From: Deltaproteobacteria bacterium
GTDB lineage: Bacteria > Desulfobacterota > Binatia > Binatales > Binataceae
DNA: 32,000 nt
Direction: 5' to 3'
Assembly: GCA_021794015.1 (NCBI GenBank)
Contig: JAJYRQ010000004.1
Coordinates: forward strand, 72,901 to 104,900
Below are positions 8,273 to 23,592 of the stretch, piece by piece; position 1 is the stretch's first letter, and the number at the start of each line of letters is the position of its first letter. The translations under genes were made by a program, and so were the position numbers. The notes under the pieces are model-generated. The model did no database searches and was not told the DNA's origin. It saw only the letters and a program-made list of their open reading frames with translations.

Positions 8273-9223
8273 TCACACGCCCAGCGCCTTTGCCGCCAGA
8301 AAACTAACTGTCAGCAGCACGGCGAACTCCAGGTGGAGTTGCGCTTCGAGGTTAATTGCCGGGTGGAGCGCTGCGCCCTCGCTTGCGCGGCAAAGCCTAT
8401 GGACCTTAAGCGCGTGCGGCAGCGTTGCCAACACCACCAGGCCCGTAACGGGTACCGTCCGCGTCACCACCCCGGCGAGCACGGCGCCGTAGGCGGCGGC
8501 GTTAAAGCACGCCAACTCCCAAAACGCGCCTCGCCGGCCGAGAATTGTGGCCAAGGTGCGCTTGCCGTGGGTGCTGTCGCTGGCGATATCGCGCAGGTTG
8601 TTCACCTGCAGGATGCCCGATCCGAGAAAGCCCATCGAAAGCGATACCCAGACCGCAGCCGCGGAAAATTTAAGCGCCGTGACGTAATAGGCGCCCAGTA
8701 CGATGGCCGGTCCCAGAAAAAGAAACGACAGCAGATCGCCCAGCGCAAGGTAGCCCAGCGCCAGCGGCGCCCCGGTGTAAAAGTAGCCGGCGGCTACGCT
8801 CGGCACGCCGATGGCCAAGACCGGCCATCCGCATCGGTAGGCAAGCCAGAGGCCGATCGCCGAGCCCAGTGCAAAGGCGGCTACGCCTCCGGCCCAGACC
8901 TGTTCAGGGCGCAAGAAGCGGCGCTGGATGGCCAGGCTTGGTCCAAAATTCTCCACCGCCAGCACGTCGAAGGAGTCCACGCCGCTGACGAAATCGCTGT
9001 AATCGTTCACCAGGTTGGTCCCCGCCTGTATGGCGACCGCGCCGATTAGCGCCAGCACAAACCTCACCGGCGAGAAATGGCCGTGGTAGACGGCCGCCGC
9101 GGTTCCCACCAGCACCGCCCCCGAGGAGACGGTCAGCGTCCACGACCTGGCCGCTACGATCCAGGTCATCAGCTTGCCGGGCCTTCCCTGACTATCCTCC
9201 AAGATCGCTTCTGTCTGCGTCAT
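8273..9223 (-). CDS. UbiA-family polyprenyltransferase, MenA-like (1,4-dihydroxy-2-naphthoate polyprenyltransferase type)
   Basis: Start taken at MTQTEAILEDSQG (internal Met of ORF 8273..9277); GTNLVNDYSDFVSGVD matches the N-D-x-x-D motif of MenA/UbiA; multiple hydrophobic segments; second region ...NNLRDIASDSTHGKRTLATILGR. Confidence 0.85.
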   Translation of the reverse strand: MTQTEAILEDSQGRPGKLMTWIVAARSWTLTVSSGAVLVGTAAAVYHGHFSPVRFVLALIGAVAIQAGTNLVNDYSDFVSGVDSFDVLAVENFGPSLAIQRRFLRPEQVWAGGVAAFALGSAIGLWLAYRCGWPVLAIGVPSVAAGYFYTGAPLALGYLALGDLLSFLFLGPAIVLGAYYVTALKFSAAAVWVSLSMGFLGSGILQVNNLRDIASDSTHGKRTLATILGRRGAFWELACFNAAAYGAVLAGVVTRTVPVTGLVVLATLPHALKVHRLCRASEGAALHPAINLEAQLHLEFAVLLTVSFLAAKALGV

Positions 9224-9424
9224 AAGCCCGCGTCCCCGCCATCTTGGCTCTGCGGTACCAGCCACCGGCGCGCCCATGGGCCACCGGTGGCAGAGCCGCT
9301 CGTCGCGGATGACGAAGGTTGAATCTAGCAGGCTCGCCGCCTGGGCTCCACATCTCCCGAGCTGCGGCGAGCTTACTGTCCGGCAGCGGCCGATGCCGGC
9401 GAGGTGCGGTAAAGAGGGCGGACG

Positions 9425-10216
9425 CTACGGCCCTGTGCTGAGAAACTGCTGTTGCTCGCCTTCCAGGACCAGACAGGTCAGAATCCCGCTTTCGTAGGCG
9501 CCGGTGTCGATCCCGATGCGATTGTGGCGTACGTCGGGAGCCGTGCTGATGCAATGCCCGTGCACCACGATGGCGCCGAAATCGGCTTGCGAGGTCACGA
9601 ACCGCTTGCCGATCCAGAGCAGGTCCCGGTCGCTCTGGGCGTCTATCGGGACGCCGGGGCGGACCCCGGCATGAACGAAAAGATAATCACCCTCGCGGTG
9701 GCGGACTTTGAGCGCTCGGAAGAACTGCAGGTGGGATGCCGGCATCTGGCTGGCGACCCGGGCGCGCAGCTCTGCCAGGGCTGCCGCGCTCTGGACCCCT
9801 GCGGGTGGTGTGGCGATCCCGTAGCTGGCCAGGGTGTCGCGCCCGCCGTAGGTGAGCCAATGGCCCCCCGCTTCGTCGTCGCCGTCCAGGAAGCGAAGCA
9901 GGAGGTCTTCGTGGTTGCCCTTGAGGGCGACCGTTTCGAAGCCGGCAAGGGGTTGTCGCACCAGGGTTTCGACCGCGCGGCAGGAGTCGGGACCGCGGTC
10001 GATGTAGTCGCCCAGATAGACCGCCACGCGGCGCACGGCCGTTGCCCGTCGGGCGTTGTCGCGGATCGCCGCGTGGATGCGGTCCAGCAGGTCGGCCCGC
10101 CCGTGAACGTCACCGATCACGTAAACGACGCATCCGGAAGGTACACGCCCGGCGGGCGCTCCCGGCCCCTCGCCCGCCGGCGGCAGACGAAAGGGAGGCG
10201 GAAAAGGCTCATTCAT
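9425..10216 (-). CDS. PPP-family metallophosphoesterase (Ser/Thr phosphatase-like)
   Basis: 263 aa with GDVHGR, GDYIDRGPDS, LKGNHED, and later HGH...(VVHGHC), the PPP metal-binding signatures. Confidence 0.92.
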   Translation of the reverse strand: MNEPFPPPFRLPPAGEGPGAPAGRVPSGCVVYVIGDVHGRADLLDRIHAAIRDNARRATAVRRVAVYLGDYIDRGPDSCRAVETLVRQPLAGFETVALKGNHEDLLLRFLDGDDEAGGHWLTYGGRDTLASYGIATPPAGVQSAAALAELRARVASQMPASHLQFFRALKVRHREGDYLFVHAGVRPGVPIDAQSDRDLLWIGKRFVTSQADFGAIVVHGHCISTAPDVRHNRIGIDTGAYESGILTCLVLEGEQQQFLSTGP

Positions 10217-10790
10217 CCGCCGGCTCCGGCCGTTCGCCCCAGCGGCGGAAAAGCGAGTGCTCGATGCCGAACTGGTCGAGCGCCTTGCCGATGGTCTGAT
10301 GGATGAGATCCAGGATCGTCAGGGGACGATGGTAAAAGGCGGGCACCGGCGGCAGAATGACCGCGCCCAGGTCCGCAGCCTCAGCCATAAGCTTCAGGTG
10401 GCCTTTGTGCAGGGGCGTTTCCCGCACCATCAGGACCAGCCGCCGGCGCTCCTTGAGCGTTACGTCGGCGGCACGCCCGACCAGATTTGCGGCCGCCGAG
10501 TTGGCGATCGCCGATAGGGTCTTGATACTGCACGGAGCCACGATCATACCCCGGGTAGGAAACGACCCGCTGGCGGGCGCGGCGCTGAGATCCTCGCTGT
10601 CATAGACCACGTCGGCCATGGCCTTGACTTCGGCCAGCGAGTAGGCGGTTTCGATCTTGAAGTTTCGCGCCGCCGCCTCGCTGATTATCAGGTGAGCCGG
10701 CGCGCCCAGCCTGCGCAGCGCCTTGAGCGTCTCGACGCCATAAATGACGCCCGAGGCGCCCGTGATGGCGACCAGCAGCGGCGCGGTCAC
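10209..10790 (-). CDS. ubiX: UbiX-family flavin prenyltransferase
   Basis: 193 aa; VAITGASGVIYGVETLKAL, FPTRGMIVAPCSIKTLSAIANS, ERRRLVLMVRETPLHKGHL are typical UbiX/Pad1 motifs. Confidence 0.96.
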   Translation of the reverse strand: MTAPLLVAITGASGVIYGVETLKALRRLGAPAHLIISEAAARNFKIETAYSLAEVKAMADVVYDSEDLSAAPASGSFPTRGMIVAPCSIKTLSAIANSAAANLVGRAADVTLKERRRLVLMVRETPLHKGHLKLMAEAADLGAVILPPVPAFYHRPLTILDLIHQTIGKALDQFGIEHSLFRRWGERPEPADE

Positions 10791-11188
10791 CGGCGCCTCT
10801 CTGCCTGCTTGAGTCTGCGTATCAGCTTATCGGTTACCTCGCGGCAGTGCATGATGACGGTGCCGAGCCTGCGGCGGTCCAGGCCGTCCCAGTGGACACC
10901 GGCGGCTACGACCACGTTGGTGTTAAGCGCTGCGGCCAACGCTTCGGCGGCCTGTTTGACCACGACGTCTTCCTTGTGGCCCGGGTAGGTCAGGACCGAG
11001 GAGGTGGCGCTGGTCTTCGCCGGGTCGGCCAAGCTTGGGCGAGGTTGAGCGGCGGCGACGGCGCCGATGTGCGGCCGGGTTCCGCCCCATATGAAAACCA
11101 GCAGGTCGGCGCCGATCCGGACTGCTTCGGCTTCGACGCGCAGCGTACGGGTGCTGCTGCGTAGCCGAAGACGCTCTACGGCCGCCAT
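10787..11188 (-). CDS. LpdD-like prenylated-flavin chaperone domain protein (start uncertain; ORF extends to 11257)
   Basis: GADLLVFIWGGTRPHIGAVAAAQPRPSLADPAKTSATSSVLTYPGHKEDVVVKQAAEALAAALNTNVVVAAGVHWDGL, the pattern I recognise for the small protein accompanying UbiD-type hydroxyarylate decarboxylases; 4-nt overlap with ubiX. Confidence 0.78.
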   Translation of the reverse strand: MAAVERLRLRSSTRTLRVEAEAVRIGADLLVFIWGGTRPHIGAVAAAQPRPSLADPAKTSATSSVLTYPGHKEDVVVKQAAEALAAALNTNVVVAAGVHWDGLDRRRLGTVIMHCREVTDKLIRRLKQAERRR

Positions 11189-11382
11189 GACTTGTCGCGC
11201 CGGCCAGCGCCGTGGTTTCGTTGCCGGCCGGCGACGCCCGTGCTCAAGCCGCACCAACGACGCCCGCCAACCCGCACCAGGGCGGGCGGTTTCCTGTCAC
11301 GCGCGGGCCTTTTGGCGTCTTGAACCAGGCTTTCGATGCTTGCGGCTAGAGCGTCGCGCCGCATCCGGTTGTCGGCCGACAT
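11176..11382 (-). CDS. small hypothetical ORF directly after the ligase stop codon
   Basis: 68 aa ORF; ATG at 11380-11382, two nt past the ligase stop. No homology recognised; may be spurious. Confidence 0.2.
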   Translation of the reverse strand: MSADNRMRRDALAASIESLVQDAKRPARDRKPPALVRVGGRRWCGLSTGVAGRQRNHGAGRRDKSWRP

Positions 11383-11383
11383 C

Positions 11384-13063
11384 TCAGGTCTTGCTTGCCT
11401 TCAACGGGAACTCGGGGGAGTCTGCGGTTAGGCGGCTGTCGATTTGCTGTCGCAGCGCCTTTTTGTCGACCTTGCCCGAATCGCCCACCGTCGGCATCGA
11501 AGCTACCATCTCGAGCCGTTCTGGGAACTTATACCGGGCGATCTTTTTCTCGGCCAAAAAGCGGGTCATCGCTTCAAAGCTGAACGTCCGGCCCGGCCGC
11601 GTCACGACGCAAGCCGCGGCGCGCTCGCCGTACACCGGGTCGGGGATTGCGACCACGGCTACCGCGGCGACTGCGGGATGCTCGTTGAGCAGGCCCTCGA
11701 CCTCGGCCGGGTAGATGTTCTGCCCGCCCCGGATAATCACATCCTTCTTGCGTCCTAGCACCCACAGGCAGCCACGCTCCATCTTGACCACATCCTCGGT
11801 TGTGGTCCATCCCTCGGCGTCAAAGACCTGCGCCGTCAAGGCGGGATCACGGTAGTATCCGGCGGGAGCGTGTGGCCCACGTATCCAGAGCACGCCGGGC
11901 TCGCCGTCAGGCGCTGCCGTGCCGGCGTCGTCGAGCAGCCGCACCTGGTTGCCCGGCAGCGGGCGGCCCACGGTACGGCGGCGCAAATCAGCCGGATCGT
12001 TGACCTGGCAGCCGGAGACCGACCCGCGGTCTTGCGTGCCAAGGTCGCTGGTGATGACGGCACCGAGCCGCCGTTCCGCCTCTTCCGCTAACTGAGGCGA
12101 GAGATAGCCGCCGGCGCAGCGGATGAACCGCAGCGCTGATAGGTCGTAATCCTCGGGTTTGCTTTCCAGCATCCGCACCAGGTGCGTGGGCACGACCCCG
12201 ATGGCGGTGACTCTCTCCCGGGCCATCAACTCAAGCGCAGTTTGCGGATTGAACTCTTCGAGCATCACCGTTTTGGCGCCGACCAGCGGCGCAGCGAAGT
12301 AGGTCAGCGTCCCGGCGGCGCCGCCGGCGTGGGGCGCCACCGCCATGGTCACGTCGTCGGCGCGCAGTTGCCACAGCTCGACGCGCGCCTTCGAGGTGCA
12401 CAGCCGCGGCGCAATCGGCCATTCCACCAGCTTGGGGAGCCCGGTGGTGCCGCTGGTGGTGGTCAGCAGCGCCACATCCCAAAACGGGTCCAGCCGCCGG
12501 CGCGCCAGCGTCGCCGGCTCGGCCTTGTCCAGGTAGTCGCGGGCCGCTCTGACCAGTGAGCGCACGCCAGCCGTGTCGCCAGCCGGAAGCTCCGCGTCGA
12601 AAAGGTAAATTCGCGTCAGGCTGGGGAACCTGCCCATCAGCTCCCGGTACATGGCCAGGTAGTCGAAGTCGCGGTAGCGGCGCGGGATGACCGCCATGCT
12701 GGCCTGGGTCTGCTCGACCATATATTCCAGCTCGGCCTGGCGCAGGTAGGGGTAGGCGGTAAGGGAAATCAGGCCAGCACGCTCGCAGGCGATGCGTGCC
12801 AGGAAGCCGTAGACGCTGTTGGGCGCCTGGACGATCACGCGGGCGTCGCGCGGCAGCCCGTCATCGATCCAGGCCGCCGCGATGGCGTCGACGAGGCGCG
12901 CGGCCTCGGCCCAGGTGACCCGGTAGTTGGAATCGACGAGCGCTTCCCGGTCCGGCCGCTCGGCCGCATTGCGTTGGTAGAAGTCGTAGAAAGTCTCGTT
13001 GGTCCAGTGGCCTTGGCGTACGAACTCGTCCACCATCGGGGGAAGGTAACGGATCGGCCTCAT
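11384..13063 (-). CDS. AMP-forming acyl/aryl-CoA ligase (ANL superfamily)
   Basis: 559 aa; LLTTTSGTTGLPKLVEW (P-loop-like), GWTTTEDVVKMERGCLWVLGRKKDVIIRGGQNIYPAEVEGLL, and C-terminal GKVDKKALR with the catalytic Lys. Confidence 0.94.
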   Translation of the reverse strand: MRPIRYLPPMVDEFVRQGHWTNETFYDFYQRNAAERPDREALVDSNYRVTWAEAARLVDAIAAAWIDDGLPRDARVIVQAPNSVYGFLARIACERAGLISLTAYPYLRQAELEYMVEQTQASMAVIPRRYRDFDYLAMYRELMGRFPSLTRIYLFDAELPAGDTAGVRSLVRAARDYLDKAEPATLARRRLDPFWDVALLTTTSGTTGLPKLVEWPIAPRLCTSKARVELWQLRADDVTMAVAPHAGGAAGTLTYFAAPLVGAKTVMLEEFNPQTALELMARERVTAIGVVPTHLVRMLESKPEDYDLSALRFIRCAGGYLSPQLAEEAERRLGAVITSDLGTQDRGSVSGCQVNDPADLRRRTVGRPLPGNQVRLLDDAGTAAPDGEPGVLWIRGPHAPAGYYRDPALTAQVFDAEGWTTTEDVVKMERGCLWVLGRKKDVIIRGGQNIYPAEVEGLLNEHPAVAAVAVVAIPDPVYGERAAACVVTRPGRTFSFEAMTRFLAEKKIARYKFPERLEMVASMPTVGDSGKVDKKALRQQIDSRLTADSPEFPLKASKT

Positions 13064-13115
13064 GGGGAATCGCCTTACTGCGAGCGGTCCTGGCTGCCGT
13101 TCGGCCCCGGCAAGG

Positions 13116-14612
13116 TCAAGTGCCCGGCTTTTTCTGGGTCGAAGGAGCGGCCGGGCGGGTCAGGCGGTCGATCATCTGCGCCACCGGACTTGAGCCGGCG
13201 AAGCCGTACTCATTCCAGCGTTCGGAGACCTTTTGCAGCACGGTCCGGTCCATGAAAATTTCCCGGGGCTTTTTCTTCCACTCAAAGGGCGTGCAGGCGT
13301 CGAGCAGGATGCGGCTGGTTATTTCGCGCGCCTCGATGGGCAGTCCGGGGTCGAGCGGGGTGGAGCGGCCGCGGTCGATAATCTGGGCCGAGCGCTTGGG
13401 ATCGAAGCGGGTTGCCAGCGCCCACATCACGCGGTCCCAGTCGTCGGCGGCGACGTCGTGGTCCACCACAATTACGCCCTTGACGCCGTAGTGCCCGGTG
13501 GTGCTCGCGATCACCGCGTTGGCCACGTGGTTGGAATGCCCGGGGTACATCTGGCGCACCGACACGATCACCCAGTAGCGTCCGCAGGCCTCGGGCGGGA
13601 TGTAGACGCTCTGGATGCCCGGTACGCGCATGGTTTGCAGGTCGGACCAGAGCGTGGCGGTGCGGTTGAGCGACTGGATCATGTGAATGTCGTTGATCGG
13701 CTTACCCACGGTCGTGGCCCAGAAAATGGGATTATTGCGGTGTAGGATGCGCTGAACCCTGAGCGCCGGCTTCGGCCACTCCTCGTCGGCGTTGCCGGAA
13801 TAATAGCCGGTGTACTCGCCGAACGGCCCCTCGGGGTGCAGGTCCTTCGGGTCGATGTAGCCCTCAAGAATAATCTCGGCCGTGGCCGGCAGCTTGAGCC
13901 CGGTAAGATCGGACTCGAACACCGGCACCGGCGCCTGGCGCAAGGCTCCGCAGACGTCGTACTCGTCGGTTTGGGCGCTGACCAGCGTCGAGCTGGCCAG
14001 GAACAGGACCGGATCGCAGCCGATGACGGCCGCGGCCGGCATCACCTCGCCCCGTGCCTCGTGTTGCTTGAGCATCATGTCCCCGTGCTTGCCCTTGATT
14101 ATCTGGCAGCCGGCAAGGTCTTTGCCCAGTATCTGCATCCGGTAGGTGCCCAGGTTGGTCCAGCCGGTTTCCGGGTCTTTGGTCACCAGGTAGACTGCGG
14201 TGCCGATGAAGCGGCCGCCGTCCTCCGGGTAAAACCAGGGAGCGGGAAACATGTTGAGATCGACGCGGCTTCCCGTGAGCACGTTCTCCATTACCGGCGG
14301 CTGCTCGAATAACCGCGGCTTGATCAACTGGCGCGTGGTCAGCTCCATCCAGCGCTTGGAGAGCTGGCTCATCGAGAGAGCGGGGTCCTGCTCAAGACAG
14401 ATGGCGAGGCGCTGCGGCGTGGTAAAGGCGCTGGTCAGGACCGGAATCCGGTACCCTTTGACATTGCTATAGAGGAGCGCGGGCCCCTTCTGCTCTTCGT
14501 TCACCTTGGAGACGTGGCAGAGTTCCAGGTTCCAGTCGACTTCCGTTTTGACCTCGTGCAACACGCCGCGTTCCCTGCACGCGGCGATGAAATCTCTTAG
14601 GTCGCGGATCAT
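13116..14612 (-). CDS. UbiD-family (de)carboxylase
   Basis: 498 aa; MIRDLRDFIAACRERGVLHEV N-terminus, NLGTYRMQ, HPEGPFGEYTGYYSG (conserved acidic residues of UbiD), HSNHVANAVIASTTGHYGVKGVIVVDHDV. Confidence 0.95.
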   Translation of the reverse strand: MIRDLRDFIAACRERGVLHEVKTEVDWNLELCHVSKVNEEQKGPALLYSNVKGYRIPVLTSAFTTPQRLAICLEQDPALSMSQLSKRWMELTTRQLIKPRLFEQPPVMENVLTGSRVDLNMFPAPWFYPEDGGRFIGTAVYLVTKDPETGWTNLGTYRMQILGKDLAGCQIIKGKHGDMMLKQHEARGEVMPAAAVIGCDPVLFLASSTLVSAQTDEYDVCGALRQAPVPVFESDLTGLKLPATAEIILEGYIDPKDLHPEGPFGEYTGYYSGNADEEWPKPALRVQRILHRNNPIFWATTVGKPINDIHMIQSLNRTATLWSDLQTMRVPGIQSVYIPPEACGRYWVIVSVRQMYPGHSNHVANAVIASTTGHYGVKGVIVVDHDVAADDWDRVMWALATRFDPKRSAQIIDRGRSTPLDPGLPIEAREITSRILLDACTPFEWKKKPREIFMDRTVLQKVSERWNEYGFAGSSPVAQMIDRLTRPAAPSTQKKPGT

Positions 14613-14659
14613 CTTCCTACCTCCGGTAAGCTGCTATTGGCCGGCCGCCGTGCTCCGCC

Positions 14660-15763
14660 TCAGCCCAGCCGCTGGCCGGCCAGGATCGTTGAAAGGATCA
14701 GGTCCATGGGCGACGCGCCCGCAGGCGAGGCCGGCACGCGCGCCTTGTTGCTCCAGACGGTCTCGGGGCGCGCCTGCAGGATGAAGACATCGGTTGCTCC
14801 CGCAGTCCCCCGTTCCACCGCCCATTCGAGGTCGAGCGGGTAGCCGTAATGCTGTTCGAGGCGCTTGCCGATGCCCGCCAGCTCGACGATTTCCTCGTCG
14901 CGCAGTGAGGGCGCCTCCTGCAGCTCGGCGGCCAGCTCGAAGCGCCGCGAAACCTGGCTTTCGCGGTCGACCGTATAGTAAACCTGCTTGCGCGAAACGA
15001 CGCGGCGGAGAATCTCCAGGCCGACCTTGTTGACCATGAATTCGTCGGGGGTAACTTCGCCGCCTACCACCGATTCGCCGAAACCGAAGTTGGCGTTGAT
15101 AAGGATGGTCGACGGGTCGCCGTTGGAGGGATTTAGGGTGAACATCACTCCGGCCGCCGATGAATCGACCATCTTCTGCACGCCGACGCAGATCGCCACC
15201 TTGTCGTGGTCGAAGCCCATCCGAGCGCGGTAGGCGAGCGCCCGCGCGCCGAAAAGACTCGCAAAACATCGCCGCACGTACTGCAGCACCTGGCCGGCGC
15301 CACGAATCCAGAGAAAGGAATCCTGTTGGCCGGCGAAGCTGGCGTTGGGCAGGTCCTCGGCCGTGGCGCTCGAGCGTACTGCAACCGCAACCGCCGCATC
15401 GCCGCAACGTTCGCCCAGTCGGCGGTAGAACTCGGCGATCTCGTCTTCCAGTTGTGCGGTGAATGTTGCGCTTTCAAGATGGGCGCGGATTTCGGCGCTC
15501 GCCGCATCCAGCGCTTGCGGGTCGCGGTAGTCGAGCTGTTCGAGGTGCGAAGCGAGAAGGTGCTGCGCGCCGCTCCCGGCCAGAAACTGCCGATAACCCG
15601 CAACGGTTACCGCAAAGCCCGGCGGGACCAGCGCTCCGGCGCGCATCAACTCGCCCAGCGAGGCGCACTTGCCGCCCACCAGCGCGGTCGAACCTTGGCT
15701 GCAGTCGTGCAGCCAGCAGACCAGCGGACTCGCCTTCATCGTGCTTCCCTCGACTCCTCGCAA
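14660..15763 (-). CDS. PEP-synthase N-terminal (ATP-grasp) domain protein, phenylphosphate synthase beta-subunit-like
   Basis: 367 aa, about 40 kDa; VGGKCASLGELMRAGALVPPGFAVT, AVRSSATAEDLPNASFAGQQDSFLWI, GVMFTLNPSNGDPSTILINANFGFGESVVGGEVTPDEFMVNK, DLEWAVERGTAGATDVFILQARPETVW. Lacks the mobile His domain, which sits in the neighbouring gene. Confidence 0.85.
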   Translation of the reverse strand: MRGVEGSTMKASPLVCWLHDCSQGSTALVGGKCASLGELMRAGALVPPGFAVTVAGYRQFLAGSGAQHLLASHLEQLDYRDPQALDAASAEIRAHLESATFTAQLEDEIAEFYRRLGERCGDAAVAVAVRSSATAEDLPNASFAGQQDSFLWIRGAGQVLQYVRRCFASLFGARALAYRARMGFDHDKVAICVGVQKMVDSSAAGVMFTLNPSNGDPSTILINANFGFGESVVGGEVTPDEFMVNKVGLEILRRVVSRKQVYYTVDRESQVSRRFELAAELQEAPSLRDEEIVELAGIGKRLEQHYGYPLDLEWAVERGTAGATDVFILQARPETVWSNKARVPASPAGASPMDLILSTILAGQRLG

Positions 15764-15821
15764 CCCAGCGCCAGGGCTTGGTAGGCTGAGGGCGCAGGCG
15801 CTACCGCGCCCTGACGCCGGC

Positions 15822-17669
15822 CTATGGAACGACCGTGATGGTGCCCTCGGAACCGTCGACGCGAATCGTCGTGCCGCTTTTTATCACCGAGGTTGCCGAC
15901 CCGGTGCCGACCACGGCCGGCACACCGTATTCACGGCAGACGATCGCCGCGTGGCACATGACGCCGCCGACGTCGGTGACGCAGGCCTTGATCTTGACGA
16001 ACGCCGGCGCCCACGACGGCGAGGTGGTGGGAGCCACCAGGATTTCTCCTTCCTGGAGTTCGCCGATCTCCTCGACGGAGCGGCAGACGCGAGCCTTTCC
16101 TTCGACCACGCCGGGACTTCCGGCAAAGCCGGTAAGCCGGGGGATGCTGGCTCCGTCGCCCGCCTCGCGCAGCTTCGCCCAGGCGTTGAGCGATTCGTTG
16201 GTTATGCCCCAGAGCACCACGGTAAAAGGCTCCTGGATGATCTCCGGCTTGGTGCCGACGGCCGGCGGCGGCCTCCAGGCGCGAAACTTCTCCATCACGC
16301 CCTTGCGCCACTGGATTTCCTGGGGCCACACCTTGGGACCGCGCGGCTTCACGCCCGTTGCCCAGGCGGTCACCAGGTCCCACAGCGCGTCCTTGATCTC
16401 GGCGCGTTTGAGGTACCAGATGTCCTCGACATCGTGGATAAACCCGTGCTCCTTCATGATTGCGGCGACTTCGCGCAGCTTGTTCCAAAACTCCGAATGG
16501 AACCAGTGCTCGACGTAGAAGAGGTGGTTCTCAACGTAGGGGAAGACAGTCCTGGAGGTGCCGAGGAGCTGATCGAAGGTGGCGCGATCCTGCTCGCTCT
16601 TGATAAGGGCCCGGTATTCGGCGGTGATGCGGTCGCGCTCCGCGCGTATCTGTTCTACCGGACGCTCGATCGCTACGCCTTGGCGAAGCTTGTCAAGGTA
16701 GGTGCGAATCGACGCAAGCGGCAGGTCGAGATCATCATTCCAGCACCTGTCATGGTGGTACCAGCCGGTGCCGGCGGAGATGTAGAACCACGGATCGCGC
16801 ACCTCGGCCAGCGCGGCCAGCCATTTCCGCCCGGCCTCGGTGCCCTTTAGCGCCGTTTCGACCTGGGCGAAGCCGCCGCTTGAACTCAACACGCCGTCAA
16901 CGCCAAGTTCGAGCGCCTTGCGTGCCAGCTTCTTCAGCTCGTCGTCCGGCCGATACATGATGGTCTCGATGCCGGCCACCATCTGCGCCAGCCGCAGACT
17001 CGGAACGTCCGGGAACAACTTGCGGCAAAAATCCAGGAAGGTCACATAGGCCGCGTAGCCGAGATTGAGAAACTCGAAGTGGTACTGCCAGCAGCGAATC
17101 CCCAGGTCGATCAGCTGATCGTAGGCGCGCAGCAGATGGTAGCCCTTGGATTCACCCACGCCTTCGAACACCACGCGGCTGTCCTCGAGCGCCGGCAAAG
17201 GCTCGATCTTGAGCGCGCGCAACTCACCGATGGTTGCCTTGAGCTTGGTCTCCCATTTGGCCACCAGGCGGTCCCAGTTCTGGTAATAATAGCCGGCCCG
17301 TTCCATGAAGTGGGCGACCCGAGCTTCGATTTCCTTCGGATCGGTGACCGGCACCGGGCTGATGTAGAGGTAGCCGTTGACGATTCGGTGGTCTACGCCG
17401 TAGACCGGCGGAATGGCGAAGATGCGGGTGTTGTATTGCGAGAGGGCGAGGAACCAGGCTTCGTCCCAGATGATGTCGAAAGGATACATCGGTTCGGGGT
17501 AGTGTAGCCCGTCGTAAAACCAGAACATCTTCTCTTCGTAGGCGCGCCGCTCCGGGTCGTCCGTCACGAAACGATAGTGGTAGGGGTAGATTCGCTCCCA
17601 ACCCTCGGTTCCCGGGATGGCTTCGACGGCATGGGGAAGCTGGAACTCTGCCTTGGATTTGGCGCTCAT
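15822..17669 (-). CDS. PEP-utilising mobile-domain protein, phenylphosphate synthase alpha-subunit-like
   Basis: 615 aa, about 70 kDa; C-terminal GEILVAPTTSPSWAPAFVKIKACVTDVGGVMCHAAIVCREYGVPAVVGTGSAT (phospho-His swivelling domain) fused to a long N-terminal region unlike the PEP/pyruvate TIM barrel. Confidence 0.82.
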   Translation of the reverse strand: MSAKSKAEFQLPHAVEAIPGTEGWERIYPYHYRFVTDDPERRAYEEKMFWFYDGLHYPEPMYPFDIIWDEAWFLALSQYNTRIFAIPPVYGVDHRIVNGYLYISPVPVTDPKEIEARVAHFMERAGYYYQNWDRLVAKWETKLKATIGELRALKIEPLPALEDSRVVFEGVGESKGYHLLRAYDQLIDLGIRCWQYHFEFLNLGYAAYVTFLDFCRKLFPDVPSLRLAQMVAGIETIMYRPDDELKKLARKALELGVDGVLSSSGGFAQVETALKGTEAGRKWLAALAEVRDPWFYISAGTGWYHHDRCWNDDLDLPLASIRTYLDKLRQGVAIERPVEQIRAERDRITAEYRALIKSEQDRATFDQLLGTSRTVFPYVENHLFYVEHWFHSEFWNKLREVAAIMKEHGFIHDVEDIWYLKRAEIKDALWDLVTAWATGVKPRGPKVWPQEIQWRKGVMEKFRAWRPPPAVGTKPEIIQEPFTVVLWGITNESLNAWAKLREAGDGASIPRLTGFAGSPGVVEGKARVCRSVEEIGELQEGEILVAPTTSPSWAPAFVKIKACVTDVGGVMCHAAIVCREYGVPAVVGTGSATSVIKSGTTIRVDGSEGTITVVP

Positions 17670-17770
17670 GGTGTTCCTCCCGTGCGATGCGGCTGATGCG
17701 CACCCGCTTTGCGTTTCACCCGCGGCCTTTCTTCGGTCCTTCCGCGCAAGGCAATCTGAAGCGGCGTATG

Positions 17771-17786
17771 AGCAAGGGTTATGCCA
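17771..17786 (-). promoter_or_regulatory. sigma-54 (-24/-12) promoter for the phenylphosphate-synthase-like operon
   Basis: Minus strand TGGCATAACCCTTGCT versus consensus TGGCAC-N5-TTGC(A/T): GG and GC elements separated by exactly 10 nt; about 100 nt upstream of the 17669 start codon; a sigma-54 activator gene is divergent. Confidence 0.8.
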
Positions 17787-17911
17787 ATAGTCTTGCGCTC
17801 AGGCCTGGTTAACCGGCGTTAGCCGGCTTCAGGGTCGCCTGCCGCAGGGATAAATCGCCAAGGACAGGCGCAGCGCGAAGCGTCGGCGCGAGAGGCTGCG
17901 CGAGGCAATTG

Positions 17912-17929
17912 ATGATTTGGTCAAATCAT
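17912..17929. promoter_or_regulatory. candidate activator (XylR/DmpR-family) upstream activating sequence
   Basis: Perfect inverted repeat ATGATTTG-GT-CAAATCAT; an imperfect 12-bp tandem direct repeat TTGGTCAAATCA/TTGGTGAAATCG (17917-17940) overlaps it; about 125 bp upstream of the -24 element. Confidence 0.65.
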
Positions 17930-18018
17930 TGGTGAAATCGTTTGATCCGAGCCGGCCCAGGGTGCGAATATGGTCAAGCAATCCTCCCGGTGTTCGCGGC
18001 TTTTGGAGGGCCAGGGCA

Positions 18019-19812
18019 ATGAATCGACCGCAGTTGGCAGGTATCGATTGGATGTCACACGGGACTCCCTGTCCTTTGGCTGTTGCAGCGACCGAATGCC
18101 CGCTTGGCCTCAGCACGCTCGACGCCATTGTGCCGGACATGAGGGACCTGGTCGTGCGCCTGCGCTTTGCGCCGGAAGAGGGCGAGATCCGGCTCGACGC
18201 TGAGCGAGTAGCCATAATGCACCTGTCGACGTTTGCCGCGCTGCGCCGGGAACTTATCGATCGGCTGGGCGTGCCGCAGGCGCGCGGCCTGTTCATGTCG
18301 ATGGGGTATGCCAGCGGGATGCGCGACGCCGGGATGGCGCGTGCCACGCACGCAGGCGACACGGTGCGCAACGCGTTTGTGGTGGGTCTTCAACTGCGAA
18401 GGCTTCAGGGCTTCGCGGCCGCCAAGGTTGAGCGGCTGGAGATCGATGTTGCCGGCGGGTGCTTCGAGGCCGAGTTCGCCGCCTCGGGCTCTTGTGAAGT
18501 CGAGGCCCACCTGACGGTTTACGGCAGTGCCGCGGCTCCGGCGTGCTGGATGCTGGTCGGGTATGCGTCGGGTTATGCCAGCGCGTTTCTGGGTCGTGCC
18601 GTCTTGTTCAAAGAGACCGAGTGCCGAGCGACAGGGGCTGTTGAATGCCGCATCGTGGGCAAGCCGGTGGGTCAATGGAGCGACGAGGAGGACCTGCCTG
18701 CGCTACAGCCGGCGGCAGTTGCCGGCCAGATGCTCGCGCAGCGCTCCTGGCCCGCGTTCGACCCCCGAGCGACCCCTTTGAGCGAGGAGATGGTTGGGCA
18801 GTCGCCCGAATTTGTCGCCGCCTGCCGGCTTTTGCAAAGGGTTGCCGGCACTGAGGCGACGGTACTGCTGCAAGGGGAAACCGGTGTTGGCAAGGAGATG
18901 TTCGCCCGCGCCCTGCACCGCATGAGCAAGCGCGCCCCCGGTCCCTTCGTTGCCGTCAACTGCGCCGCAATTCCGGAAAATCTCATTGAAGCCGAGTTGT
19001 TCGGCGTGGAGAAGGGCGCCTTCACGGGCGCAGCATATTCGCGGCCGGGCCGGTTCGAACGTGCCGACACCGGCACTCTGTTTCTGGACGAGGTGAGCAG
19101 TCTGCCGCTGGCCGCCCAGGCCAAGCTTTTGCGCGCCATCCAGGAGCGCGAGATCGAGCGCGTAGGCGACGTCAAAGCGCGCAAAGTGGACGTGCGGATC
19201 GTGGCCGCAACCAGCGTGAACCTGGCAAACGCAGTCTCAGCCGCGCTGTTCCGCGACGATTTGTATTTTCGGCTAAGTGTGTTCCCCTTGCACATACCAC
19301 CGCTGCGGGCGCGGCGCGAGGATATCCCGCTGCTAGTGCAGCGCTTCGCCGGCCGCTATGCCCGGCTCTACGGGCGCGAGATCGGCGGCCTCACGGCGGG
19401 CGCGCTCGAACGGCTGCTGAACTACGACTATCCGGGGAATATTCGGGAGTTGCAGAACATGGTCGAACGGGCGGTCATCCTTTGCGACAACGGTCGCCCA
19501 CTCGACGTTCAACATTTTCCCCCGTGCGCAGACCAACTGCGGGCGCCGGCAACGGCTGGCTCGGTGGGTGCTGCAGCGCTCGCCTCCCGCGCCAGCACCG
19601 AGGTGCCGGGCGATTGGTCCCCGCTGGTCGAACGCTTTTTCAGCCGCCGCCTGACTTTTCGCGAATTCGAGGAGGCGCTGCTCGCGGAGGCGCTACAGCG
19701 GAGCAATGGTAATCTCTCGGCAGCCGCGCGAATGCTCGGCTTGACCCGCCCGCAGGTTGCTTACCGATTCAAGAAGCGCCAGCGCAGGTCGCTCGAATCG
19801 AGCTGCCGCTGA
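18019..19812 (+). CDS. sigma-54-dependent transcriptional activator, XylR/DmpR/PoxR-like (XylR_N + V4R + AAA+ + Fis HTH)
   Basis: GETGVGKEMFARALH (Walker A), GAFTGA, GTLFLDEVSSL (Walker B), V4R-like ...FKETECRATGAVECRIVG with paired Cys, C-terminal SNGNLSAAARMLGLTRPQVAYRFKK. ATG at 18019 is preceded by ggaggg and is preferred over the TTG at 17917. Confidence 0.94.
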   Translation: MNRPQLAGIDWMSHGTPCPLAVAATECPLGLSTLDAIVPDMRDLVVRLRFAPEEGEIRLDAERVAIMHLSTFAALRRELIDRLGVPQARGLFMSMGYASGMRDAGMARATHAGDTVRNAFVVGLQLRRLQGFAAAKVERLEIDVAGGCFEAEFAASGSCEVEAHLTVYGSAAAPACWMLVGYASGYASAFLGRAVLFKETECRATGAVECRIVGKPVGQWSDEEDLPALQPAAVAGQMLAQRSWPAFDPRATPLSEEMVGQSPEFVAACRLLQRVAGTEATVLLQGETGVGKEMFARALHRMSKRAPGPFVAVNCAAIPENLIEAELFGVEKGAFTGAAYSRPGRFERADTGTLFLDEVSSLPLAAQAKLLRAIQEREIERVGDVKARKVDVRIVAATSVNLANAVSAALFRDDLYFRLSVFPLHIPPLRARREDIPLLVQRFAGRYARLYGREIGGLTAGALERLLNYDYPGNIRELQNMVERAVILCDNGRPLDVQHFPPCADQLRAPATAGSVGAAALASRASTEVPGDWSPLVERFFSRRLTFREFEEALLAEALQRSNGNLSAAARMLGLTRPQVAYRFKKRQRRSLESSCR

Positions 19813-20130
19813 TCCACACCTGGTGGCTGCGTGCAGGGGTCGAGACGCCCTGTCGCGATGTCGGCGCCGCCGGCCGACTACCGAGCGAAGGCCGGGGACT
19901 GAGCCGCTCAGTCTGGCCAGGTCAGGGCGAGTTTTGACTTAGGCCGACGCAGGCCGCGGCCCCTGGAAACCTTGTCGGCAAAATCAGCGGCCCTCCCGTC
20001 CCCGCCGCCTTGGGCCTCGCCGGCTATCCGCTACGGCGACCCGTCCGCCGCTGCGGCCAGGACCGGCTAGCAGCCCAGCAGGGAGGGGTAACGAGCCCTT
20101 CTAATGTCGGGGCTTGCCAAAATAAGGTAC

Positions 20131-20158
20131 TTTACAAAGGTCGCTCCGGGGCTATACT
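20131..20158 (+). promoter_or_regulatory. candidate sigma-70 promoter for the sdh/frd operon
   Basis: TTTACA (20131-20136), 16-nt spacer, TATACT (20153-20158); each element one mismatch from consensus; 52 nt upstream of the GTG start. Confidence 0.55.
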
Positions 20159-20210
20159 TGGGGCGGCATCCCGGGGGTGCGCCAAGTCTAGTCGAGAGGA
20201 GTGTGCAGGA

Positions 20211-21026
20211 GTGTCCGCAGCGGCTATCTCTCGTTCGCAGGTTGGAGTTGATGGGGTTCGGCTGGGGTTGACCCGGCGGCGCGACCCGTGGTGGGTGCAG
20301 CCGGGGGCGGTTTTTGTCGGGCTTGCGGCTTTCGTTGTGTATGTGACGTGGGCGGGATTGCAGGGGCGCTACTATCGTTTCGGTCCTTATCTCTCGCCCT
20401 TTTACTCGCCTGAATTGTGGGGATCGCCGGAGGCCTGGTTCGGTGCGGCGCCGCCGTGGTGGTACCCGCAGTGGCTTAGGTTTTCGCCCGCGGTCTTCAT
20501 TCTATGGATTCCCGCCGGGTTCCGGCTGACCTGCTACTACAATCGCGGTGCTTACTATAAGGCGTTTTGGGCGGATCCACCAAACTGCGCGGTCGGCGAG
20601 CCGCGCAAAAGCTACTGGGGCGAGAACTACTTCCCCCTCTTGCTGCAAAACATTCACCGCTACTTCATGTACCTGGCGGTTCTGCTCGTGCTCGTGCTGC
20701 TCGATGACGTATGGCATGCGCTATGGTTCACGAACGCCGCCGGTCACCTGCGCTTCGGGATCGGGGTGGGGACGCTGGTGATCACCCTCGATGTTGCTTT
20801 GGTGGCCGCTTACACCTTCGGCTGCCATTCGCTGCGCCATGTCTGCGGCGGTCGGCTTGACTGCCTGGCGGGGCGTCCGGTGCGGGCCGCGCTCTATGAT
20901 TGCACCAGCGGGTTGAACCGTAGGCATATGGCTTGGTTCTGGGTCAGTTTAGCCTGGGTGGGGTTTAGCGACCTTTACGTGCGGCTGTGTGCCATGGGTG
21001 TTTGGACCGACTGGAGAATTCTCTGA
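20211..21026 (+). CDS. succinate dehydrogenase/fumarate reductase membrane anchor subunit (large single-subunit type)
   Basis: GTG start at 20211 (VSAAAISRSQVGVDGVR...), about 271 aa, several transmembrane segments, conserved-looking histidines (NIHRYFMY, VWHALWF, GCHSLRH), 1-nt overlap with the flavoprotein gene. Confidence 0.8.
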   Translation: MSAAAISRSQVGVDGVRLGLTRRRDPWWVQPGAVFVGLAAFVVYVTWAGLQGRYYRFGPYLSPFYSPELWGSPEAWFGAAPPWWYPQWLRFSPAVFILWIPAGFRLTCYYNRGAYYKAFWADPPNCAVGEPRKSYWGENYFPLLLQNIHRYFMYLAVLLVLVLLDDVWHALWFTNAAGHLRFGIGVGTLVITLDVALVAAYTFGCHSLRHVCGGRLDCLAGRPVRAALYDCTSGLNRRHMAWFWVSLAWVGFSDLYVRLCAMGVWTDWRIL

Positions 21027-22843
21027 TGCTGGCCTACGAGGCGATCCGGCACGATGTTCTGGTGATCGGCGCGGGCGGCGCGGGCCTGCGGGCGGCGATC
21101 GAGGCCTCGGCCGAAGGCGCCTCCGTCGGCGTGGTATGCAAGTCGCTGCTCGGCAAGGCGCACACCGTCATGGCCGAGGGCGGTATCGCCGCGGCGATGG
21201 CCAACGTGGATGAGCGCGACAACTGGAGGGTCCACTTTTCCGACACGATGCGCGGCGGCCAGTACGTCAACAACTGGCGGATGGCCGAGCTTCATGCCAA
21301 AGAAGCTCCGGAGCGGATTCGTGAACTGGAGGCCTGGGGCGCGCTCTTCGACCGCACCGGCGACGGCCGCATCCTGCAGCGCCACTTCGGCGGCCACCGC
21401 TACGCCCGCCTGGTTCACGTCGGCGACCGCACCGGTCTCGAGATGATCCGCACGCTACAAGACCACGGCATCCACCGCGGTATCGAGTTCTACATGGAAT
21501 TTACGGTTTGCGCGCTCTTGACCGAAGGCAACCGGGTGGTGGGCGCGGTGGCCTACAGCCGCGAAAAGGGGACCTTTTTCGTCTTCCAGGCCAAGGCCGT
21601 GGTTTTGGCCACCGGGGGTATCGGACGTTCCTACAGGATTACCAGCAATAGCTGGGAGTGTACCGGTGACGGGTTGGCGCTGGCCTACCGCGCCGGCGCC
21701 GAGCTGGCCGACATGGAGTTTGTGCAGTTTCATCCCACCGGGATGGTCTGGCCGCCGAGCGTTGCCGGTCTTTTGGTGACCGAAAGCGTGCGCGGTGAGG
21801 GCGGCGTTCTGCGCAACAACCAGGGGCGGCGCTTCATGTTCGACGACATTCCCGAGGCTTACCGCGCCCAGACCGCCGACAACGAGGAAGAGGGGTGGCG
21901 CTACACCCAGGGCGACAGGAACGCCCGGCGGCCGCCCGAGTTGGTGACCCGCGACCACGTCGCCCGCTGCATCGTGCGCGAAATCAAGGAAGGCCGCGGC
22001 AGCCCGCACGGCGGTGTGTTTCTCGATATCGCGTGGATCCGGGAGAAAATCCCCAACTCCGCGGAACATATCAAGCGCAAGCTGCCTAGCATGTACGACC
22101 AGTTCCTCAAGCTGGCCGGGATCGACATCACCAAGGTCCCGATGGAGGTCGGCCCCACCACCCACTACATGATGGGCGGCATCCGGGTGGACGGCGATTC
22201 CCAGGTGTCCTCGGTCGAGGGGCTGTTCGCGGCCGGTGAATGCGCTGCCGGGCTGCACGGCGCAAATCGTCTGGGCGGCAACTCTCTCTCCGACCTGCTG
22301 GTCTTCGGCCGGCGCGCCGGACTGTACGCGGCCCAGTTCGCCCGTCAGGCTCAGTGGGTCGAGGCCGACCAGAACCAGGTGCACGCTGTCATCGCGCATG
22401 CTGTCGAGCCGTTCGAGCGCGCCGCGGCGCACCCGGCCGACTCGCCTTACCGCATCCTGGAGGAGCTCCGGGAACTGATGCAGAACCTGGTCGGCATCGT
22501 GCGCACGGGCGAGGAAATGACCCAGGCGCTCGACGGCCTGGCCAAGTTCAAGGAGCGCGCCCTGCGGGTGGGCGTTGTGGGCAATCGCTTCTACAACCCC
22601 GGCTGGCACACGTCACTCGACCTGGACAATCAGCTCATCGTTTCCGAGGCGGTCTGCCGGGCCGCGCTCACCCGCTCGGAAAGCCGCGGCGCGCACTATC
22701 GGCTCGACTACCCGAACAAGGACGTGCGTTGGGGACATATCAACCTGGTCGTACGCCGGGCAGACGATGGCATGGCGGTCGTCGAGCGGCCGCTGCCGGA
22801 GATGCCGCAGGAACTCAAGGCCATTATCGAGGAGATGAAGTGA
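21026..22843 (+). CDS. sdhA: succinate dehydrogenase/fumarate reductase flavoprotein subunit
   Basis: HDVLVIGAGGAGLRAAIEAS (FAD), KSLLGKAHTVMAEGGIAAAM, ATGGIGRSYRITSNSWECTGDGLALAYRAGAELADMEFVQFHPTG, GANRLGGNSLSDLLVFGRRAG. Start at ATG 21026. Confidence 0.96.
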   Translation: MLAYEAIRHDVLVIGAGGAGLRAAIEASAEGASVGVVCKSLLGKAHTVMAEGGIAAAMANVDERDNWRVHFSDTMRGGQYVNNWRMAELHAKEAPERIRELEAWGALFDRTGDGRILQRHFGGHRYARLVHVGDRTGLEMIRTLQDHGIHRGIEFYMEFTVCALLTEGNRVVGAVAYSREKGTFFVFQAKAVVLATGGIGRSYRITSNSWECTGDGLALAYRAGAELADMEFVQFHPTGMVWPPSVAGLLVTESVRGEGGVLRNNQGRRFMFDDIPEAYRAQTADNEEEGWRYTQGDRNARRPPELVTRDHVARCIVREIKEGRGSPHGGVFLDIAWIREKIPNSAEHIKRKLPSMYDQFLKLAGIDITKVPMEVGPTTHYMMGGIRVDGDSQVSSVEGLFAAGECAAGLHGANRLGGNSLSDLLVFGRRAGLYAAQFARQAQWVEADQNQVHAVIAHAVEPFERAAAHPADSPYRILEELRELMQNLVGIVRTGEEMTQALDGLAKFKERALRVGVVGNRFYNPGWHTSLDLDNQLIVSEAVCRAALTRSESRGAHYRLDYPNKDVRWGHINLVVRRADDGMAVVERPLPEMPQELKAIIEEMK

Positions 22844-23592
22844 TTCCCAGCACCGCAACGTTTCTTATCTGGCGGGGGGACGCGCAAGGCGGCGCGTTCC
22901 AGGAGTACCGGATCGGGATTTCCGAGGGCATGGTAGTGCTGGATGCCGTCCACCGTATCCAGGCCGAGCAGGATAACACGCTGGCGGTACGCTGGAACTG
23001 CAAGGCTGGCAAGTGCGGCTCCTGCGCCGCCGAAGTCAACGGCCGGCCCAGGCTGATGTGCATGACGCGCCTCGGTGACTTGGCGCTCGACCGGCCGGTG
23101 ACGCTCGAGCCGATGCGCACCTTCCCGCTTTTGCGGGACCTGGTGACCGATGTCTCGTGGAACTTCAGGACCAAGCTGGCGATTCAGCCCTTGCGCACGC
23201 GGCCGGCCGACGCGCCCGACGGCACTTGGCGCATGATGCAGCGCGACGTGGACCGGCCCCAGGAGTTCCGCAAATGCATCGAGTGCTTTCTCTGCCAGGA
23301 CGTATGCCACGTACTGCGCGACCACCGGCTGTTCGACCGTTACATCGGGCCGCGTCTGCTGGTCTACACGGCGCAGCTCGAAATGAACCCCATCGACGCG
23401 GCCGACCGGCTGGGCGACCTCAAAGACCTTCACGGAATCGGCTACTGCAACATCACCAAGTGCTGCACGACGGTCTGCCCCGAGGAGATCAAGATCACCG
23501 ACAACGCGATAATCCCGCTCAAAGAGCGGCTGGTTGACGCTTTCTACGATCCGCTAACCCGTCTGGCGCGCGCGCTCGGGCTGCGCGGCTAG
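22840..23592 (+). CDS. sdhB: succinate dehydrogenase/fumarate reductase iron-sulfur subunit
   Basis: GTG start overlapping the sdhA stop (GTGA); WNCKAGKCGSCAAEVNGRPRLMC ([2Fe-2S]), CIECFLCQDVCHV and NITKCCTTVCPEEIKIT (further Fe-S ligands). The longer ORF from 22240 is an upstream artefact. Confidence 0.95.
   Translation: MIPSTATFLIWRGDAQGGAFQEYRIGISEGMVVLDAVHRIQAEQDNTLAVRWNCKAGKCGSCAAEVNGRPRLMCMTRLGDLALDRPVTLEPMRTFPLLRDLVTDVSWNFRTKLAIQPLRTRPADAPDGTWRMMQRDVDRPQEFRKCIECFLCQDVCHVLRDHRLFDRYIGPRLLVYTAQLEMNPIDAADRLGDLKDLHGIGYCNITKCCTTVCPEEIKITDNAIIPLKERLVDAFYDPLTRLARALGLRG

Follow-up and report, generated by a model that had tools for sequence, protein, structure and literature searches.

Genes and control region of the locus

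The subject of this analysis is a candidate operon for the anaerobic activation of a phenolic compound, which lies in 32,000 nucleotides of contig JAJYRQ010000004.1 (positions 72,901 to 104,900 of the forward strand; assembly GCA_021794015.1) from a Deltaproteobacteria bacterium of the Binataceae; this whole stretch is hereafter called the window. At window positions 9425-19812 seven minus-strand genes are found, together with a divergent plus-strand regulator gene (Table 1). Domains were assigned by Pfam and NCBIfam profile searches on the open reading frames (ORFs) of the window, and all eight ORFs that the initial annotation had grouped into one module were confirmed in their domains, coordinates and strands. 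Gaps of about 47-58 bp separate the first four genes of the operon, and the last three are joined by overlaps of 4 and 8 nt. This contig was also annotated independently, in the metagenome-assembled genome (MAG) GCA_027403145.1, and those gene calls comprise the same genes, with a shorter PpsB (359 aa), LpdD (133 aa) and regulator (597 aa). An identical PpsA is present on 23 contigs from several samples, with the same gene order at the places listed, and such a gene set cannot have a chance origin.

Table 1. Genes and control elements of the operon and of its divergent regulator, in window coordinates
Feature	Coordinates	Strand	Basis and remarks
PheR/DmpR-type sigma-54 activator (XylR_N, V4R, Sigma54_activat/AAA+, HTH_8)	17917..19812	+	Pfam; probable start 18019, giving 597 aa
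Candidate upstream activator-binding palindrome ATGATTTGACCAAATCAT	17912..17929	.	Direct sequence reading
Sigma-54 -24/-12 promoter TGGCATAACCCTTGC	17772..17786	-	One mismatch to TGGCAC-N5-TTGC
ppsA-like, phenylphosphate synthase alpha, 615 aa	15822..17669	-	PF00391, NF006152
ppsB-like ATP-grasp nucleotide-binding subunit, 367 aa	14660..15763	-	PPDK_N PF01326, E=8.5e-109
Standalone PpcB-like UbiD carboxylase, type II clade, 498 aa	13116..14612	-	UbiD_N, UbiD, UbiD_C; TIGR02724
AMP-forming aryl-acid ligase, probable 4-hydroxybenzoate-CoA ligase, 559 aa	11384..13063	-	AMP-binding + AMP-binding_C
LpdD-like chaperone binding reduced prenylated flavin mononucleotide (prFMNH2)	10787..11257	-	PF21758 (LpdD chaperone / PAC_bac), E=6.7e-36; 133 aa if start 11188
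UbiX flavin prenyltransferase	10209..10790	-	TIGR00421 237 bits, NF004685 244 bits
PPP-family metallophosphoesterase	9425..10216	-	Metallophos PF00149

The divergent intergenic region contains a sigma-54 promoter, which is on the correct strand and 103 nt upstream of the ppsA ATG, and a perfect 8+8 palindrome. The palindrome overlaps the regulator start at 17917, and the start at 18019 is therefore favoured; the repeat finder, at its length settings, gave no report of this element, which was read directly and tested with our own script. Related loci were collected by a one-genome-per-species scan, which yielded 595 encoded PpsA relatives and of which the best 80 loci were kept (81 counting the window). 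A strict -24/-12 motif is found upstream of ppsA in 40 of the 81 loci and in 0/9 of those regulated by a LysR protein. Palindromes related to TTTGAyCAAA precede ppsA in 15/81 loci, 17-fold above the background of the same loci (16 matches in the 36 kb upstream of ppsA versus 36 in the remaining 1.4 Mb of locus sequence), an enrichment for which the AT-rich composition of intergenic DNA is a partial confound. The PheR system of Aromatoleum aromaticum provides a parallel for the combination of a sigma-54 promoter, a PheR-like activator and an enriched palindrome (PMC10715001).

The best NCBIfam match of the regulator is MobR, with 505 bits, below the exception-level cut-off of 999. Its sensor domain, at about 18140-18720, matches the structures of PoxR (5fru, E=3e-47), DmpR (6iy8) and MopR (5kbe), with E-values ranging to 1e-38, and the zinc site C155/E178/C181/C189 is kept. 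Scans for terminators and sigma-70 promoters gave nothing above shuffled expectation.

Synthase, carboxylase and the layouts of related loci

The ppsA product has the PEP-utilizers mobile His domain at residues 539-609, with the phospho-His motif MCHAAIVC, and scores 1101 bits with NF006152 (cut-off 723). PpsA of Aromatoleum buckelii U120, to which it is 69% identical, belongs to the same equivalog (1347 bits); thus the protein, for which the initial annotation had considered other phosphotransferases as alternative relatives, sorts with phenylphosphate synthase. Across the three layout types described below, PpsA identity stays at about 70%. Phenylphosphate synthase is characterised by an alpha subunit of about 70 kDa and a separate ATP-grasp beta subunit of about 40 kDa. 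Directly downstream of ppsA, the window encodes PpsB as a standalone PPDK_N protein of 359-367 aa, 54% identical to PpsB of A. buckelii. The gamma subunit PpsC, a CBS-domain protein, is reported to stimulate phenylphosphate synthase without being required for it (PMC6114531); its absence from the window coincides with a divergence of PpsB.

The window contains only one UbiD gene. Its product scores 589 bits with TIGR02724 (phenyl_P_beta, cut-off 469), 196 bits with TIGR02723, the model of the PpcA alpha subunit (cut-off 565), and 297 bits with the VdcC model (cut-off 650). Identity to the A. buckelii proteins is 55% for PpcB, 30% for PpcA and 28.5% for PpcX, and the window UbiD groups with PpcB and apart from PpcA, PpcX and the quinone and hydroxyarylate decarboxylases that the initial annotation had named as possible relatives. 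In the neighbour-joining (NJ) tree it falls in a tight type II clade, next to the UbiD of L031; its identity to the other type II UbiDs is 71-81% in nearly all cases (67% in one), with 72% to the UbiD of a Geobacterales MAG that shares its layout. The name given to it by NCBI is phenylphosphate carboxylase subunit beta (MCL5044441.1).

The reference proteins of the window and of the canonical cluster of A. buckelii U120 were mapped onto all loci by tblastn, and three layouts were found, which match three clades of the PpcB-like proteins in the NJ tree. Type I (14 loci) is the canonical multi-subunit layout; in A. buckelii U120 (L073) the order is regulator, PpsA, PpsB, PpsC, PpcB, PpcD, PpcA, PpcC, PpcX, UbiX, a riboflavin-kinase-like protein and Nudix. 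Type II has one PpcB-like UbiD without PpcA, PpcC and PpcD; it accounts for 49 of the 81 loci, counting the window, more than any other layout of the close PpsA relatives, with hosts in the Alpha-, Beta-, Gamma- and Deltaproteobacteria, including Desulfuromonadales and MAGs of Geobacterales and Anaeromyxobacter. Type III (8 loci, mostly from Desulfobacterales) has a LysR regulator and a single UbiD that is more divergent.

The consensus order of type II, with the variable members in brackets, is (PNPOx-like), regulator, PpsA, PpsB, UbiD, UPF0261, (Nudix), PpsC, (LpdD), UbiX, (PPP phosphatase). Gene presence was counted over 38 informative type II loci: PpsC is found in 36 of them, and in 9/9 type I loci, UPF0261 in 35, and in 5/6 type III loci, UbiX in 34, the PPP phosphatase in 13, Nudix in 12, LpdD in nine and the ligase in four, while both PpcC (gamma, PF09662/TIGR02725) and PpcD (delta, a HAD phosphatase, TIGR02726) are at 0/38. 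The PNPOx-like gene (PF01243; e.g., L063:4872-5345), which stands beside the regulator in 20/38 type II and 6/9 type I loci and is missing from the window, may be an accessory for handling flavin or prenylated flavin mononucleotide (prFMN).

The initial annotation had reported the absence of a second UbiD, of a CBS-domain synthase subunit and of the gamma and delta subunits; indeed, tblastn searches of the 32 kb window with PpsC, PpcA, PpcC and PpcD of A. buckelii gave no match with a threshold as permissive as E=10. Searches of the same kind, with E-value limits of 1-10, also revealed no genes or remnants for riboflavin-kinase-like, Nudix, UPF0261, PNPOx-like and DUF2390 proteins in the window.

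The locus belongs, in a reduced form, to the known phenol activation clusters that have a single PpcB. PpsAB, PpcB and PpcY (UbiX) form a core common to nitrate, sulfate and iron reducers and to syntrophs, and Geobacter metallireducens (Gmet_2100-2102) is reported to have pps genes with a ppcB homologue only (PMC6114531, PMC5946492, PMC1924859). For Desulfatiglans anilini, the reported cluster holds ppsA, ppsB, ppcB and a ligase gene, and ppcC is lacking genome-wide (PMC6114531, PMC5946492). Similarly to both, the window has ppsA, ppsB, one PpcB-like UbiD and UbiX, and no PpcA, PpcC or PpcD in the cluster; the likeness to G. metallireducens rests on the Geobacterales MAG and on the literature description. 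The window adds LpdD and the PPP phosphatase to the gene sets of these two organisms, and, unlike the Geobacterales-type loci, it is without PpsC and UPF0261. A CoA ligase inside the cluster is shared with D. anilini; however, the window enzyme is EntE/AliA-like, whereas the cluster ligases of D. anilini and Thauera are PaaK-like. With the canonical ppsABC-ppcBDAC clusters of Thauera and Aromatoleum (A. buckelii, L073) the locus has in common the divergent sigma-54 activator of the PheR type, the sigma-54 promoter and the downstream UbiX, but it lacks PpsC, PpcA, PpcC, PpcD, PpcX and the riboflavin-kinase-like and Nudix genes. Thus, the novelty of the layout that the initial annotation implied is not supported, because the single-UbiD arrangement is the commonest, has been published and its protein is already annotated as PpcB; the term minimal is instead appropriate for the window locus, as it is without the PpsC and UPF0261 that nearly all type II loci carry.

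The UbiD proteins were aligned to Aspergillus niger Fdc1 (AnFdc1), whose reference sequence was verified against PDB 4za4. In AnFdc1 we take N168, H191 and E233 to be the ligands of Mn and of the prFMN phosphate, and R173, E277 and E282 to form the catalytic E-R-E network. All six residues are kept in the window UbiD, as they are in the 57 standalone enzymes (type II, 49/49; type III, 8/8). The window protein thus retains ancestral residues that are changed in the canonical subunits, represented for A. buckelii by L073:13719-15140 and 15736-17226: PpcB has H191R in 14/14 sequences and E233D and G281A in 13/14, PpcA has H191L in 11/11, and in PpcX N168, H191 and E233 are all lost. Since the six signature residues are all kept, the standalone PpcB-like proteins look, at the sequence level, like complete prFMN enzymes, and a complete prFMN signature fits the presence of adjacent UbiX and LpdD.

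Ligase, cofactor genes and phosphatase

No NCBIfam ligase model reached its cut-off with the window ligase. The protein has a large set of orthologs, with 66-72% identity, which in 3/3 sampled contexts lie directly after UbiD in pps clusters; because of this conserved gene context, it is the probable 4-hydroxybenzoate-CoA ligase of such clusters. It represents a non-orthologous counterpart of the PaaK-like ligase that ends the canonical and some of the type III clusters. A recent horizontal insertion of the ligase was considered and is not supported, since ligase identities track the UbiD clades (70-79% within type II and 60-69% to type III).

In type II, the ligase and UPF0261 hardly ever occur together: one locus has both, four have the ligase only, 39 have UPF0261 only and none has neither (Fisher p=3.7e-5, a value that overstates independence, the loci being phylogenetically related). 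The type II loci L013, L036 and L088 carry the same ligase and are, like the window, without UPF0261, while some of the LysR-regulated loci carry both genes. The UPF0261 protein (PF06792 + PF23189) is encoded after the single UbiD, as in L014:14548-15828 and L091:4364-5635; its family includes MarK, recently found to act on phenolic hydroxyls as an ATP-to-ADP kinase (PMC12624787). In the isolate Dethiosulfatarculus sandiegensis (L086:13300-17078) and in a metagenome contig (L087:14768-17650), the latter with three UPF0261 paralogs as well, the pps-ubiD-ligase cluster adjoins genes for a xanthine-dehydrogenase (XDH)-type Mo-enzyme. These genes (FAD_binding_5, Fer2_2, MoCoBD) resemble those of 4-hydroxybenzoyl-CoA reductase, which is of the same enzyme class.

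The cofactor genes are located downstream in the operon and the start of ubiX overlaps the stop of lpdD by 4 nt, the two being translationally coupled. The GGTxPHIG motif is conserved in the window LpdD, which matches the LpdD structures of Lactiplantibacillus plantarum (8pzh and 8p4w) at E=2e-4. LpdD is a characterised prFMNH2-binding chaperone (PMC10865409) and no stand-in for the gamma and delta subunits, in whose place the initial annotation had put it. The trio of UbiD, UbiX and LpdD is the same as in the LpdBCD gallate decarboxylase system of L. plantarum (PMC10865409); however, the reaction proposed for the window is the carboxylation of an aryl phosphate rather than gallate decarboxylation, and the two LpdD proteins are distant.

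The last gene, coding for the PPP phosphatase, overlaps ubiX by 8 nt and is also translationally coupled. Its product contains the motifs GDVHG, GDYIDRG and GNHE, in agreement with the PPP pattern (GDxHG, GDxxDRG, GNHE), and its relatives in PDB are lambda phosphatase, RLPH2 and an ApaH-like enzyme. In 4/4 sampled contexts (L089:7001-7837, L090:7001-7738, L091:7001-7858 and L092:7001-7852), which comprise phenol clusters of both layouts, an ortholog with 51-58% identity takes the final position, so the phosphatase is a conserved accessory of phenol clusters. A simple swap for the HAD delta subunit PpcD was rejected, because orthologs also occur in PpcD-containing clusters; in Aromatoleum toluvorans, one of them closes a canonical cluster that also has PpcD. 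Two roles are plausible: hydrolysis of aryl phosphate, which is favoured by the fact that PPP enzymes typically take phosphotyrosine-like substrates, or the supply of dimethylallyl monophosphate to UbiX, favoured by the finding that the gene always comes after UbiX or Nudix. The literature search found no paper linking this PPP phosphatase family to phenylphosphate.

Proposed function and alternatives

The locus is likely to be a sigma-54-controlled operon, of the single-PpcB-like layout, for the anaerobic activation of phenol or of a very close phenolic compound, by which an uncultured anaerobe would convert phenol to 4-hydroxybenzoyl-CoA. The sequence of phosphorylation, UbiD carboxylation and CoA ligation under a sigma-54 activator, which the initial annotation had proposed, fits every homology and context test run. 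The genes present, their families, the conserved catalytic residues, the promoter and the synteny were observed directly; for the steps of the pathway we infer substrate identity, regiochemistry, oligomeric state and the role of the phosphatase as follows. The PheR/DmpR-type activator would bind its effector, and probably also the palindrome, and then open the sigma-54 promoter. PpsB, as the ATP-grasp subunit, and PpsA, with its substrate domain and swivelling phospho-His domain, would convert phenol, ATP and H2O to aryl phosphate, AMP and Pi. A homo-oligomeric PpcB-like UbiD, with a prFMN that UbiX synthesises and the LpdD chaperone delivers, would then carboxylate phenylphosphate in the para position, yielding 4-hydroxybenzoate and phosphate; we infer that the enzyme uses phenylphosphate directly and that the phosphate departs in this step. 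The ligase would provide 4-hydroxybenzoyl-CoA for a benzoyl-CoA pathway encoded elsewhere, and the PPP phosphatase may help to cleave aryl phosphate or furnish UbiX with dimethylallyl monophosphate.

Several observations weigh against this assignment. In MopR, H106 and W134 hydrogen-bond the phenolic OH (PMC10715001), and the window regulator has R and A at the respective positions, so that both phenol-anchoring residues of MopR, PoxR and DmpR are lost. H and W are present at both positions in 14/14 type I regulators, while R106 is found in 15 of the 44 type II regulators and A134, among these 44, in the window only; this altered pocket provides the main reason to suspect an effector other than phenol. 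Of 114 columns that at least 97% of homologs conserve, PpsB is off at 11, more than any other of the 82 homologs compared. The nearest solved relatives of the ligase are salicylate- and 2,3-dihydroxybenzoate (DHB)-AMP ligases, with 235 bits, versus only 125 bits for benzoate-CoA ligase structures, and the enzyme is thus nearer to salicylate/DHB-adenylating enzymes than to the classical benzoate- or 4-hydroxybenzoate-CoA ligases. PpsC and UPF0261 have left no remnants, the ligase following UbiD directly in their place, and no gene for 4-hydroxybenzoyl-CoA reductase or benzoyl-CoA reductase is contained in the 32 kb window. Moreover, no in vitro carboxylase activity has been obtained for the single-UbiD type, the assays having failed, and the PpcB-only carboxylation of phenylphosphate in strict anaerobes is an acknowledged puzzle, for which a different mechanism is suspected (PMC6114531).

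Some of these features would also agree with the same chemistry acting on a substrate or effector other than phenol, such as another hydroxyarene or an arylamine (cresol, catechol, hydroquinone or aniline): the regulator pocket with its unique A134, the unusual divergence of PpsB and the resemblance of the ligase to enzymes adenylating ortho-hydroxybenzoates. PpsAB homologs are in fact known for cresol (CreHI), hydroxyphenylethanones (HpeHI/AcvAB) and aniline (PMC9618137, PMC7500099). However, the kinases for phenol, alkylphenols and hydroxyphenylethanones form separate clades (PMC9618137), and the window PpsA is in the canonical equivalog with its 69% identity, while the phenol enzyme of D. 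anilini is only 42% identical to Thauera PpsA (PMC6114531); furthermore, PpsA deviates at only 5/264 highly conserved columns. Like the proposed pathway, those of Hpe/Acv and MarK begin with a split PpsAB-like dikinase that phosphorylates a phenolic OH at the expense of ATP, and carboxylation, dephosphorylation and CoA ligation come next (PMC9618137, PMC12624787); in them, however, the acetyl side chain is carboxylated by a biotin enzyme and the phosphatase is of the HAD type (NagD-like), whereas the window has a UbiD-type ring carboxylase and a phenol-equivalog PpsA. A substrate other than phenol has therefore a minor share of the probability: the alternative substrate suggested by the initial annotation is backed by the altered regulator pocket and is not favoured by the enzyme data.

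The loss of two near-universal members, PpsC and UPF0261, together with the changed pocket and the deviations of PpsB, could also indicate a type II phenol cluster that is decaying or partly disabled and no longer supports growth on phenol. Such a decay is unlikely, because the eight ORFs are all full length, with intact catalytic motifs, and because the identical PpsA recurs on the 23 contigs with the conserved order mentioned above. PpsC is also reported to be dispensable for the synthase (PMC6114531), three type II loci with the same ligase lack UPF0261 as well, the promoter is near consensus and the window UbiD is off at only 6/226 conserved columns. The complete signature of self-sufficient prFMN decarboxylases, which canonical PpcA and PpcB do not have, and the lack of a PpcD phosphatase subunit would also suit an ordinary reversible 4-hydroxybenzoate decarboxylase, or phenol carboxylase, acting on free phenol instead of phenylphosphate. 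This appears very improbable, as the protein passes the PpcB model and stays far below the VdcC cut-off, and as the UbiD gene directly follows ppsAB in 57/57 loci, a linkage that would serve no purpose without the use of phenylphosphate; in addition, it is thermodynamically unfavourable to carboxylate free phenol.

Beyond phenol activation by a known type of cluster, a more far-reaching proposal can be put forward tentatively, and with more doubt than confidence. The locus may represent the bare minimum of a second system for phenylphosphate carboxylation with a mechanism of its own, in which a self-sufficient homo-oligomeric prFMN UbiD, with the metal and prFMN ligands lost from canonical PpcA and PpcB, would work without gamma and delta subunits, PpsC and the aromatic-kinase-like UPF0261 partner, and the dedicated ligase or the conserved PPP phosphatase would supply the thermodynamic pull or the cleavage of aryl phosphate; the re-tuned sensor pocket (H106R, W134A) would then suggest a non-phenol or anionic effector.

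The single locus is already correctly annotated in public records and fits known biology. As a compact seven-gene version with UbiX and LpdD, and without PpsC and UPF0261, it is nevertheless a convenient candidate for heterologous reconstitution. Two testable leads extend beyond the window: the full prFMN/Mn signature of the standalone enzymes, lost in the canonical subunits, which emerged from the 80-locus comparison, and the MarK-family UPF0261 protein and PPP phosphatase, as conserved and unstudied members of phenol clusters.

The operon is flanked by housekeeping genes: isc/hsc genes, a lipoprotein gene and MenA on one side, and a succinate dehydrogenase/fumarate reductase (sdh/frd) operon, a TonB receptor, PgsA and HflX on the other. 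The MenA-type UbiA prenyltransferase (8273-9277; TIGR00751 124 bits, cut-off 102) is encoded on the same strand, 147 bp downstream of the operon; it was rejected as a member of the module and is probably a mere neighbour, because it is not conserved beside any related cluster. The sdh/frd operon is located at 20010-23592. Its first gene (271-338 aa) has no Pfam match and presumably codes for a membrane anchor, while the 450-aa ORF at 22240-23592 is over-long, the Fe-S subunit being called as 250 aa.

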